This document shows, piece by piece, positions 40,857 to 44,089 of a DNA stretch of 64,000 bases. This stretch comes from Nibricoccus sp. GTDB taxonomy: Bacteria; Verrucomicrobiota; Verrucomicrobiia; Opitutales; Opitutaceae. A program made the position numbers and the translations under genes. Each line of letters starts with the position of its first letter. The first letter of the stretch is position 1. The notes beneath the pieces were generated by a model. That model saw only the letters and a list, made by a program, of their open reading frames with translations, ran no database searches and was not told the DNA's origin. The stretch spans positions 928,001-992,000 of the forward strand of contig JASGHG010000001.1 in the NCBI GenBank assembly GCA_047602425.1. Direction: 5' to 3'.

Positions 40857-42464
40857 TCACCACACCAACAGCCCGCTGGCAAAGGTGAGCCCGGCGCCGA
40901 CGCTGCAGAAAATGATTTTGTCACCCTGCGCGAAAATTCCTTCCTCGGCGGCCCAACCAAGGGCCATCGACACACTGGCAGCGGAGGTGTTGCCGTACTT
41001 GCCGATCGTGACGACGAACCGCTCGTAGGGGATGCCCACGCGTTTGCTGACGGCGCGCAGAATGCGCTCGTTGGCCTGATGCGGAACGATCCAGGCAATG
41101 TCGGCCGGATGGAGATTGTGACGCGCAAGCGTGGCTTCGATCTGATCGGCAAAAGCAATGACAGCGTGCTTGAATACCGCCGAACCATTCATTTGCAGGT
41201 AAAAGTCGTCGCGATCGTGACCTTCGGGATGCGGAAGCGGACGGGCGGCGCCACCGCCGCGACGTTGGATCGCCTCGAATTGATCGGCATCGCCAGCGAG
41301 CTTCATGCGGCCAAGTCGGTGTCCACCCGCGCAATCCGTAAGCACCGCGGCGCCGGCGCCATCGCCAAAGAGAAAGGCGGTGGCGTGGTCCTTTGGATTG
41401 GTTATGCGGGAAAGGAGTTCGGCCGTGACAACGATGAGTTTTTTCGCCGTGCCGGAGCGGATGAAGGAACGGCCGACTTCGAGCGCGTAGAGCCAGCCGG
41501 CGCAGGCAGCGTTGAGGTCGAAGGCAAGCGCGTGGGGAACGCCGAGCTGTTTCGCCAAAGCGCTGGCCATGGAGGGCACGGGCTGGTCGGGAATGAGCGT
41601 GGCCATGATAACGCCGTCGATTTCCTTCACGTCGACCTTAGCTTGGGCGAGGGCGTGCTGCACGGCGGTGACGGCGAGGCTGGTGGCGCTTTCGCCTTCG
41701 GCGGCATAGCGGCGCTCGCGGATGCCGGTGAGTTTGATCACCTCGGCCTCGGTCATGTCGGGAAACTCTTTCAAAATTTCGCCGTTTGAACGAATGCCCG
41801 AGGGAAATGCGTAACCAATGCCTGCGATACAAACCGTCTCGGCCGAGTGCGGGTTGAAACCAGCAGTGGATGCGTTGGCGGAGGGCGCGGCCGCCGGCGC
41901 AGTCACCCTGGCGCGTTTTTGGAGGTAGCGATCAACGTCGTCGCCCGAAACGCGGCCGCCGGGGCCGGTGGCTTCAATGTCGGTAATCGTCGCGGGATTG
42001 AGGCCGGCTTCGGTTGCAAGTTTGCTAGCCCTGGGCGTCCAGAGAATACCGGCCGCGGGCGCTGGCGCGGCGGGTCGCACGTGAACAGTCGCGGGAGCAA
42101 TAGGCGTGGCGACGGCGGCGGGAACGGAAGCCAAAATTTCGGCGGGCGCCGGTTTGGTTCCAGGGGCGTGAACAACGCCGCTGACAGTCTTGGCCTTAAG
42201 GTGGAGCAACGACTGATCGGCAGTCTCGATTTTAAAAAAGGGCGCGCCCGAAGGCAGAATGTCGCCGGCACGACCCACGATTTCTTTGACGGTGCCGTCG
42301 CAGGGAGATTCGAATTCGAAAACCGATTTGTCGCTTTCCAGTTCGGCCAGTTTTTGGCCTTTGGCAATGGGTGCGCCGGGGGCCACAACGATGTCGATCA
42401 CCGTTAGCTCATTTACAGTCGCGCCCATTGAGGGCACGGGTACGTCGATCAGAAAGGAGTCCAT
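40857..42464 (-). CDS. fusion of lipoyl domain, E1/E3-binding (PSBD) domain and 3-oxoacyl-ACP synthase III (FabH)
   Basis: ELESDKSVFEFESP; TPRASKLA..ATGPGGRVSGDDV; LTGIRERR, NAACAG, LFGDGAGA, PHQAN, YGNTSAAS. Confidence 0.9.
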   Translation of the reverse strand: MDSFLIDVPVPSMGATVNELTVIDIVVAPGAPIAKGQKLAELESDKSVFEFESPCDGTVKEIVGRAGDILPSGAPFFKIETADQSLLHLKAKTVSGVVHAPGTKPAPAEILASVPAAVATPIAPATVHVRPAAPAPAAGILWTPRASKLATEAGLNPATITDIEATGPGGRVSGDDVDRYLQKRARVTAPAAAPSANASTAGFNPHSAETVCIAGIGYAFPSGIRSNGEILKEFPDMTEAEVIKLTGIRERRYAAEGESATSLAVTAVQHALAQAKVDVKEIDGVIMATLIPDQPVPSMASALAKQLGVPHALAFDLNAACAGWLYALEVGRSFIRSGTAKKLIVVTAELLSRITNPKDHATAFLFGDGAGAAVLTDCAGGHRLGRMKLAGDADQFEAIQRRGGGAARPLPHPEGHDRDDFYLQMNGSAVFKHAVIAFADQIEATLARHNLHPADIAWIVPHQANERILRAVSKRVGIPYERFVVTIGKYGNTSAASVSMALGWAAEEGIFAQGDKIIFCSVGAGLTFASGLLVW

Positions 42465-42598: not shown

Positions 42599-43393
42599 TC
42601 AACTGCGGGCGGCACGCCAAATGGCGAGACATTTGTCGAGCAAGGCGGGAAGTTCGCCGAGCGGAATCATGTTGGGGCCATCGCTGATTGCTTCGGCTGG
42701 ATTCGGATGCGTCTCAATAAAAAGCCCGTCGGCACCGGCGGCGAGCGCGGCCTTGGCGAGCGGAGGGACAAATTCGCGCTGTCCCCCACTCTTGCCACCC
42801 GCCGCGCCGGGCAATTGCACGCTATGAGTGGCGTCGAAGATGGCGGGAAAACCGTTCGCCTTCATGATGGCGAACGAGCGCATGTCGACGACGAGGTTTT
42901 GATAACCAAAAGTCGTGCCACGCTCGGTTTGCCAGATCTCGACGGCTTTGCCTTCGCGGAGTTTGTTGGTCACAAAAACCATTTCCTGAGGAGAAAGGAA
43001 TTGTCCCTTTTTCACGTTGACGATGCGACCGCTCGCAGCGGCGGCGAGGAGCAGATCGGTCTGGCGGCAGAGAAACGCGGGGATCTGCAACACGTCGCAT
43101 ACTGCGGCGACCGGCGCGACTTGCGCGGTGTCGTGGATGTCGGTCAGCACCGGGAAACCGTAGTCGCGTTTGATCAGTGCGAGGAGTTTCAACCCTTCGT
43201 CGAGACCCGTGCCGCGCGGACCGGAGGCGGACGTACGGTTGGCTTTGTCGAACGAGCCTTTGAAGATAATCTTCAGTTGGGGCTGCGCTTTTTGGACGGT
43301 GGCGAGTGTCTCGGCCACGGCGCGACAGACCTTCTCGTTTTCGAGCGAACAAGGACCAGCGATCAGCAGAAGTTTAGCAGGATCGAAAAACAT
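42599..43393 (-). CDS. kdsA: KDO-8-phosphate synthase
   Basis: [39 protein letters not shown]. Confidence 0.96.
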
Positions 43394-43465
43394 GCCCACG
43401 AACCTATCGCGGAAACGTAGAGGAACGGAAGCGCGGAATTTTACGGTGACTGAAGCAGTTTGAAT

Positions 43466-44089
43466 CTACCTATCGAAGCCCAACCCGACAGGATTGCCGG
43501 CTTCCAAAGAACTGTGCCACATACGACTTTTATCATTCATTCCAGAGTATGCAATGAAACCACTTTCGGGCTCAGGCGGATCATAAAATGTAATCGAAAA
43601 AAGGGTTAGTCCCCGTATTTCTTCGGCGAACTCAGCCATACGGGGTTGGGCTTTTATTTCCTCTTCTTTGAATGCTGCAAGACGACGCAAGAACTGATCT
43701 GCATCTTGAACGAGCGAGCGGGCACGCTGGAGCAGAATCGGATTAGGCAACCCCTCACTATAGACTGTGATTCCGACTTCTGTGGATCCAAAGAATGCCC
43801 TCCCGTTCCATTCGTCCCCCTCATGCACCAGTTCGCCAAGCACTGAATCTTCGATCGATGGGGGGATTCGGGTAATGCCCTGCTTTTCTTGACGCCGGAT
43901 TTCCCGGATAACTGCCCAGCTAGCCAAAGCAAAGGGAGTGGCAACTACGAGAATGCTCGCCACGTATAAAGGCCAGTGCACATCAGGAAAAAGAAAGGCT
44001 GGTGACGTCAAAATCATCACCCCCAGGTCCACCACAATCCCCACGACGAACCAACTGACACCCTCCCAAATAATCTTACCTTTTCTCAT
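43466..44089 (-). CDS. hypothetical membrane protein (two N-terminal TMs)
   Basis: 207-aa ORF between pyrG and kdsA, lower GC than both. Confidence 0.7.
   Translation of the reverse strand: MRKGKIIWEGVSWFVVGIVVDLGVMILTSPAFLFPDVHWPLYVASILVVATPFALASWAVIREIRRQEKQGITRIPPSIEDSVLGELVHEGDEWNGRAFFGSTEVGITVYSEGLPNPILLQRARSLVQDADQFLRRLAAFKEEEIKAQPRMAEFAEEIRGLTLFSITFYDPPEPESGFIAYSGMNDKSRMWHSSLEAGNPVGLGFDR

Follow-up and report, generated by a model that had tools for sequence, protein, structure and literature searches.

A conserved lipoyl-PSBD-KAS III fusion of the Opitutales and its possible role in priming branched fatty acids from a lipoyl arm

A single gene of Nibricoccus sp. encodes a lipoyl domain, a peripheral subunit-binding domain (PSBD), and a KAS III ketosynthase. 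This fusion is genuine and is conserved in the Opitutales. Its likely role is to replace the E2 core of a branched-chain 2-oxoacid dehydrogenase. Sequence comparison makes it highly probable that an E1 of the P0121 type, described below, is the partner of the lipoyl arm. The same comparison leans towards the full mechanism, in which branched fatty acids would be primed by direct transfer of the acyl group from the lipoyl arm to the ketosynthase cysteine. Those inferences of an earlier note on this DNA that are accessible to comparison held, and its reading is supported. No description of a lipoyl-KAS III protein was found in the literature searched, which is mostly without subscription journals, and within that searchable literature the system is undescribed.

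The fusion gene and its locus

The window is a 64,000-nucleotide stretch of Nibricoccus sp. (assembly GCA_047602425.1, contig JASGHG010000001.1, positions 928,001 to 992,000), and coordinates given without a genome or locus label are window positions. The fusion gene occupies 40857..42464 on the minus strand as a single ORF, and its product, P0001, is 535 amino acids in length. The plus frame of 40857-42464 is interrupted by stops. All features of the gene described here lie on the minus strand.

The lipoyl domain (residues 7-79, 42228..42446) matches PF00364 (Biotin_lipoyl) with an E value of 1.2e-14, and the PDB structures closest to it are lipoyl domains of E2 subunits. The predicted lipoylation site, Lys46, lies at 42327..42329 in the sequence ESDKS, within ELESDKS. 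A biotinyl carrier was considered and is ruled out by the DKS motif and the E2-type nearest structures. Linker 1 (approximately residues 90-141, 42042..42197) is rich in Ala and Pro and is followed by the PSBD, an E1/E3-binding domain (residues 142-188, 41901..42041). The PF02817 (E3_binding) match covers residues 142-177 with an E value of 6.1e-7 and 30.0 bits, above the cut-off of 23.7. Linker 2 spans approximately residues 189-207 (41844..41900). Both linkers are defined by composition and pLDDT; Ala and Pro account for 23/49 residues in the first and 10/22 in the second, and AlphaFold gives low pLDDT at 95-136 and 192-201.

The KAS III domain, of FabH fold (residues 208-535, 40860..41843), is assigned by NCBIfam, alignment, and structural model. 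Pfam places ACP_syn_III at residues 315-389 and ACP_syn_III_C at 446-535. Two NCBIfam FabH models exceed their cut-offs, NF006829 (319.1 against 249) and TIGR00747 (293.1 against 292.1), and no NCBIfam E2 model reaches its cut-off on P0001. Alignment to E. coli FabH identifies the catalytic triad as Cys321 (41502..41504), His462 (41079..41081), and Asn492 (40989..40991). Cys321 and His462 are invariant in the alignments, as is the HQAN.RI motif; Asn492 is found in 96/97 (one gap), 119/119, and 240/240 rows. The ORF, Pfam, and NCBIfam evidence thus agrees with the earlier note, which had read a lipoyl-lysine motif, Ala/Pro linkers, an E1/E3-binding domain, and a full FabH with a Cys-His-Asn triad in one frame.

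The AlphaFold model built from 150 sequences has three folded parts separated by disordered linkers, with a pLDDT of 87.4 and a pTM of 0.77, the latter not taken as interface evidence. It is preferred to an earlier model built from 45 sequences, in which the KAS domain folded poorly (pTM 0.47). The KAS part of the model superimposes on E. coli FabH with a TM score of 0.96 and an rmsd of 1.7 Å. A complex prediction for the lipoyl domain with the KAS dimer, with a score of 0.02 and a mark of 0.32, has no bearing either way.

The best 119 homologues are 69-92% identical to P0001, and the named ones belong to Opitutaceae or Opitutae. A survey of domain architecture, which the earlier note had proposed, finds lipoyl plus KAS III conserved: 118 of the 119 other homologues among those listed have a lipoyl Pfam match, and the architecture is matched in 80 loci of named genomes. 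An assembly chimera or a frameshift is ruled out by the same counts. K46 is invariant in 150/150 rows of alignment A4 and is present in 239/240 distant homologues. In the docking domain, W142, T143, P144, A146, G167-G169, S173, G174, and D176 are invariant in 76/76 close rows; the domain is mostly gaps in 74 distant rows.

The protein resembles the E2 subunits of PDH, OGDH, and BCKDH in having a lipoyl domain, Ala/Pro linkers, and a docking domain in the same order. It differs from them in that the acyltransferase core is absent (PF00198 has no Pfam match in P0001) and a dimeric-FabH-type ketosynthase is present instead. A fusion lacking that core would perform no CoA transfer and form no large core. 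It resembles FabH/KAS III of the E. coli, S. aureus, and B. subtilis types in fold, triad, basic ACP face, and scores above NCBIfam cut-offs. Unlike FabH, it carries N-terminal lipoyl and docking domains, has T28, W32, R36, and R151 replaced, and lies outside the plsX-fabH locus.

The usual position of the fusion gene is between pyrG-kdsA and a convergent rsmE. Among the 80 related loci, kdsA is a neighbour in 60, pyrG in 55, and rsmE in 61. In the window, the upstream neighbour (42599..43399, minus strand) belongs to the DAHP/KDO8P synthase family (PF00793); the name kdsA is a reading from family and context. The earlier note had observed that E1 and E3 genes are not adjacent, and this extends from the present locus, which has none, to 80/80 related loci. 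An Opitutales operon of E1 and fusion, split only in this genome, was considered and rejected, as E1 is adjacent in 0/80 loci. A promoter and terminator scan gave results at chance level. A 207-amino-acid ORF lies between pyrG and kdsA (43466-44089) and has sub-threshold Pfam matches only. Elsewhere in the window, the minus strand carries a type VI secretion cluster (9800-37000), with an ImpA domain identified by Pfam and other components recognised from ORF sequences. The segment 47738-51389 encodes a 1028-amino-acid VIT-domain membrane protein and, after it, a small membrane protein of exosortase-like appearance by eye.

The probable partner E1 and its association with the fusion

The genome contains two E2 cores (PDH and OGDH) and three large E1s. 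The third E1, P0121, is a fused E1alpha-beta of 677 amino acids located outside the window, 2.4 Mb away (G000 C1:3385805-3387838), with no E2 beside it. It is the orphan E1 without a cognate E2 that the earlier note had predicted. The motifs GDG, ENN, GHA.YD, AES, and FHS are conserved, so that the thiamine and catalytic motifs are intact; we take these to represent the ThDP motif (GDG..N), the alpha His, and the beta Glu and His. The E1 is followed by kdsC-lptC-lptA in 20 of 21 genomes. Genes for LipB and LipA are present in the Nibricoccus genome, a shared E3 (lpd) lies beside sucAB, and a second, canonical FabH with its CoA contacts retained is found in a plsX-fabH locus. Among the best 25 of 718 matches of the P0121-type E1 against plasmids, relatives are only 34-38% identical.

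Co-occurrence was assessed in 151 genomes of the order and 61 of the family, samples that overlap and in which kin are not independent, so that Fisher P values are overstated. A KAS orthologue is present in 18/151 order genomes, and the E1 in 18/18 of these. A nineteenth match (G103, 41% identity) groups with canonical FabH and was dropped. Three further order genomes have the E1; in two of them the lipoyl-PSBD is a stand-alone gene, and in the third a KAS tail lies at the end of a contig. Of the 16 copies in the order sample that are fused, those of G068 and G033 each bear a single stop or frameshift.

The 61 family genomes can be sorted by the state of the fusion, with classes assigned from the match table and three split loci inspected. 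The fusion is intact in 31 and split into two adjacent genes in 18, approximately at linker 2. Three genomes are contig-end or unclear cases, five have the lipoyl-PSBD only, and four, representing four genera, have no module. The one-chain lipoyl-FabH design of the earlier note therefore stands for the 31 genomes and is not obligatory, given the 18. The pairing with E1 that it predicted is found: the E1 orthologue and the lipoyl-PSBD are both present in 57/61 genomes and both absent from the remaining 4/61. An extra E1 in G020 was considered as a hidden orthologue and rejected, since its neighbours are sugar-modifying genes and its place in the tree is a different one.

In the arm-only loci inspected, the KAS gene is simply missing behind the arm. 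The stand-alone lipoyl-PSBD genes of L171, L172, L297, L298, and L299 are approximately 150 codons long and follow kdsA. One of the five arm-only genomes (G348, 98% complete) also lacks the single-chain dehydrogenase described below. An arm with E1 but no KAS, in a genome without that enzyme, implies that the loaded arm has another acceptor or is decaying. The acceptor there would have to be the canonical FabH or an E2 core that is borrowed; otherwise the arm is being lost. A stand-alone FabH-like match is present in 60/61 family genomes. The canonical FabH of G291 (C4:108685-109794) and G546 (C1:2167786-2168895) is matched in two pieces within a 376-codon frame, which suggests an internal insertion.

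More distant lipoyl plus KAS III clusters in the ESM Atlas are commonest in Fibrobacterota, Planctomycetota, and Spirochaetota. One cluster, commonest in Planctomycetota, is 688 amino acids long with approximately 250 extra residues. A distant 440-amino-acid form without the docking domain carries the names Chitinispirillaceae, Chitinivibrionales, Pirellulales, and Thermoguttaceae on its homologues. It occurs in 13/80 metagenome loci, two of which begin at a contig edge; the contigs bear no taxon names, and the phyla come from named homologues. In 11/11 of the loci with upstream DNA, the E1 orthologue is the direct upstream neighbour on the same strand, 39-42% identical to P0121, which bears out the proposed pairing of E1 and fusion. 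The E1 stop and the lipoyl-KAS III start touch or overlap in five of the 11. No E2 core was detected in these distant loci, some of which are short.

In the E1 tree, the distant E1s and the Opitutales E1s (P0121) form one clade with a bootstrap of 100. The sister clade (100) consists of E1s from an E1alpha-E1beta-E2 operon with a true E2, assigned to Akkermansia by protein records and to one other family. This operon is the nearest E2 case. The tree and the sister operon with its E2 imply that KAS occupies the place that the E2 core has in the nearest relatives. The 31 rows of lipoyl-linked KAS domains fall into a single group, supported at 92/92 (below the starred level of the tool), apart from canonical FabHs.

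These patterns bear on the alternative of a vestigial or regulatory lipoyl part, with no chemistry shared between the two halves. The split genes in 18 and the missing KAS in five of the 61 genomes are what such a reading would expect. Set against it are the invariant K46, the match between presence of the arm and presence of E1 in all 61 genomes, and the two-gene arrangement with E1 in distant relatives, and it is considered very improbable.

The ketosynthase active site and the proposed transfer

The CoA contacts of FabH are listed in the accessible text of one study as T28, W32, R36, R151, and two asparagines (PMC4606726). By alignment to E. coli FabH, the first four correspond to M237, E241, L245, and H360 of P0001. 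Two overlapping sets of Opitutales KAS domains were compared, 97 from loci and 119 proteins. W32 is replaced in 97/97 and 119/119, mostly by Glu and never retained as Trp. R36 is replaced in all by Leu, Ile, or Thr, T28 is Met, Arg, or Lys, and R151 is mostly His, being kept in at most 1/97 and 0/119. N247 is retained. All four contacts are present in 7/7 canonical FabHs from the clade. A control of 127 stand-alone FabH-like representatives (138 minus 11 fragments or fusion pieces) has W32 in 121, R36 in 111, and R151 in 110; the three occur together in 98/127, and none of the three is present in 1/127.

All 240 distant homologues have Tyr at position 32; among them R36 is lost (Val in 239), T28 is lost (Thr in 1), and R151 is kept in 154 and is Lys in 31. 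Tyr32 throughout and R151 in 154/240 indicate that the distant CoA site is only partly changed. As judged from these alignments, the description of a lost CoA pocket applies to the Opitutales, and elsewhere in part.

Loss of CoA-contact residues lowers, and need not abolish, the use of acyl-CoA. It is conceivable that the orphan E1 loads the arm, that a PDH or OGDH E2 core unloads it to CoA in trans, and that the KAS domain uses the branched acyl-CoA, with the fusion only co-locating these steps. Such borrowing is compatible with Tyr32 and the mostly retained R151 of the distant forms, with the presence of at least one E2 core in all 61 family genomes, with the five E1-plus-arm genomes lacking KAS, and with the split gene in 18. 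It is regarded as rather unlikely, since W32, R36, and R151 are all replaced in the Opitutales, against 1/127 stand-alone proteins, and since KAS occupies the E2-core place of the sister operon. Also against it, Chitinispirillum alkaliphilum is a fermenter with ferredoxin oxidoreductases for pyruvate, according to the accessible text of its description (PMC4814513).

The ACP face is retained in P0001 as K432, R467, K474, and R475. The corresponding E. coli positions, K214, R249, K256, and K257, are presumably the basic ACP-docking face of FabH, and each is Lys or Arg in 97/97 and 119/119 Opitutales domains. The acyl pocket differs at V296, F364, and V522 (F87V/I, I155F, and F304V family-wide). 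F304V is present in 238/240 distant and 96/97 close KAS domains, and together with I155F marks a remodelled acyl pocket across the lipoyl-KAS family.

The FabH-fold domain could instead be a transacylase, and so a new kind of E2 core, that passes the acyl group by way of C321 to holo-ACP (then to FabF) or to CoA. Acylating activity is on record for KAS III folds in the accessible part of one report (PMC4578411), and the domain sits at the E2-core position. H462, N492, and HQAN.RI, which are needed for malonyl decarboxylation, are invariant, and CoA as the acceptor is disfavoured in the Opitutales by the lost contacts; a transacylase is thus quite unlikely.

The preferred mechanism, transfer from lipoyl arm to cysteine followed by condensation, would proceed as follows. 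LipB and LipA, whose genes are seen in the genome, would lipoylate K46. With thiamine diphosphate as its cofactor, P0121 would decarboxylate a branched 2-oxoacid and transfer the acyl group reductively to the arm. C321 would then probably attack the acyl-dihydrolipoyl thioester without CoA. H462 and N492 would decarboxylate malonyl-ACP, and the 3-oxoacyl-ACP would enter type II synthesis to yield iso and anteiso acids; this is the FabH chemistry to be expected of a domain whose triad and ACP face are intact. Finally, the shared E3 would dock on the binding domain and reoxidise the arm. The plsX-linked FabH would start straight chains from acetyl-CoA. The five arm-only genomes of 61, the part-kept distant CoA site, and the distant forms without a docking domain count against this mechanism.

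A more general reading is that a ThDP decarboxylase and a lipoyl-tethered KAS III provide, in several phyla, a CoA-free entry to membrane lipids by making 3-oxoacyl-ACP from branched 2-oxoacids. The case for it is judged evenly balanced, and equally so for the part of it in which the lipoyl arm, rather than CoA or ACP, would be the acyl donor of the ketosynthase.

Substrate and known systems

Three lines point indirectly to a branched primer. The first is a single-chain E1alpha-E1beta-lipoyl-E2 core enzyme of approximately 1030 amino acids, without an E3-binding domain by Pfam. Its UniRef name is 3-methyl-2-oxobutanoate dehydrogenase, and among solved structures the Thermus enzyme 1um9 is nearest to it. 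It is present in 36/151 order genomes and in none of the 16 with a fused gene. In the family it occurs in 0/31 genomes with an intact fusion, 4/18 with a split gene, 0/3 contig-end cases, 4/5 arm-only genomes, and 4/4 without the module. In all, 8/9 family genomes lacking KAS have this BCKDH-like enzyme. A third complete E2 core is absent from all 31 intact-fusion genomes. At L165:4935-8036, the single-chain gene follows a fatty acid oxidation multifunctional gene.

The second line is the lipid profile of carriers. Nibricoccus aquaticus contains i14:0 (19.9%), ai15:0 (19.3%), and i16:0 (14.5%) (PMC12193912, Table 1), and ai15:0 is described as dominant in C. alkaliphilum in the accessible text (PMC4814513). 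Proteins of both species, P0053 and P0372 respectively, belong to the lipoyl-KAS III family. Horticoccus luteus, the species named on a single-chain enzyme record, contains 34.9% iso-15:0 (PMC12193912, Table 1), an acid not listed as major for N. aquaticus (PMC12193912) or C. alkaliphilum (PMC4814513) in the accessible parts of these sources. As a lead only, from three species, the fusion might prefer valine- and isoleucine-derived primers, and the lipoyl-KAS route may in this way favour iso-even and anteiso acids. Relatives that have other enzymes make branched fatty acids too.

The third is the sister operon, whose E1 is the only alpha/beta E1 in 4/4 Akkermansia-genus genomes searched, a genus in which A. 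muciniphila has largely branched PE, as described below. To the partner E1 itself no NCBIfam model assigns a substrate, and its best PDB matches mix PDH and BCKDH. The possibly branched-chain primer of the earlier note gains indirect support from the complementarity with the BCKDH-like enzyme, from the carrier profiles, and from the sister operon. It is quite likely, by inference, that the partner E1 takes branched 2-oxoacids.

The same arm-to-cysteine transfer with a different substrate or product, such as pyruvate, 2-oxobutyrate, or a special chain like the 3-hydroxy acids of lipid A, is unlikely. Lipid A and LPS genes do recur nearby, namely kdsA with the fusion (60/80), kdsC-lptC-lptA with the E1 (20/21), and lpxI with the sister operon, and the E1 specificity is not fixed by a curated model. 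However, neither kdsA nor kdsC was found near the distant pairs, and no lipid A gene was recognised adjacent to the pair of L188, the sole fully listed distant locus. The genome already has an ordinary PDH as well as a canonical FabH. PRK05963, presumably a model of BioZ-type KAS III, scores far below its cut-off on P0001 (240.3 against 437). The complementarity with the BCKDH-like enzyme and the branched profiles of the two carriers, as far as given in the accessible text (PMC12193912, PMC4814513), point to branched primers.

In the textbook route, branched-chain fatty acid synthesis requires the three subunits E1, E2, and E3, a pool of free acyl-CoA, and a FabH that is permissive. If the mechanism is true, two genes and a shared E3 would replace this set, primer supply would be shielded from acyl-CoA catabolism and acetyl-CoA competition, and lipoamide would join the acyl donors of ketosynthases as a new member. 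The mechanism would also account for the iso and anteiso lipids of most Opitutaceae without a BCKDH E2, correct hundreds of FabH and orphan PDH E1 annotations, and supply a compact module with which E. coli could be made to produce branched fatty acids.

Thiamine enzymes are reported to load lipoyl carriers without free acyl-CoA in QncN/QncL and NapB/NapD of quinocarcin and naphthyridinomycin synthesis. Those systems reportedly differ in their ketose donor, E2-type transferase, ACP acceptor, and role in secondary metabolism, and have no KAS III acceptor.

The closest working precedent is in Photorhabdus, where a route to iso acids that combines a dehydrogenase with a ketosynthase, on a different carrier, has been described. 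According to the accessible parts of the sources, BkdABC (plu1883-1885) produces a 3-oxoacyl thioester with a branched chain and enables E. coli to make iso fatty acids (10.1101/2022.10.20.513026, PMC4578411, PMC3838401, PMC4901931). The BkdB carrier is described there as an internal ACP domain, for which the phosphopantetheinyl transferase NgrA is needed (PMC4578411 among the sources), and one BkdABC paper, in its accessible part, draws the product as a CoA ester. The present system is like BkdABC in pairing a 2-oxoacid dehydrogenase E1 with a dedicated ketosynthase, here by co-occurrence and adjacency. It is unlike BkdABC, compared by description, in that a lipoyl carrier and E1/E3-docking domain are fused to the ketosynthase and E1alpha and E1beta form one chain. 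ACP family domains have no Pfam match in P0001 or P0121.

The Akkermansia-type E1alpha-E1beta-E2 operon is seen at L292:7620-11771, L294, and L295, with lpxI directly after it. The phosphatidylethanolamine (PE) of A. muciniphila is 92% branched, and the genes are unnamed in the accessible text (PMC9328018). The operon is a candidate source of the branched chains of this immunomodulatory PE.
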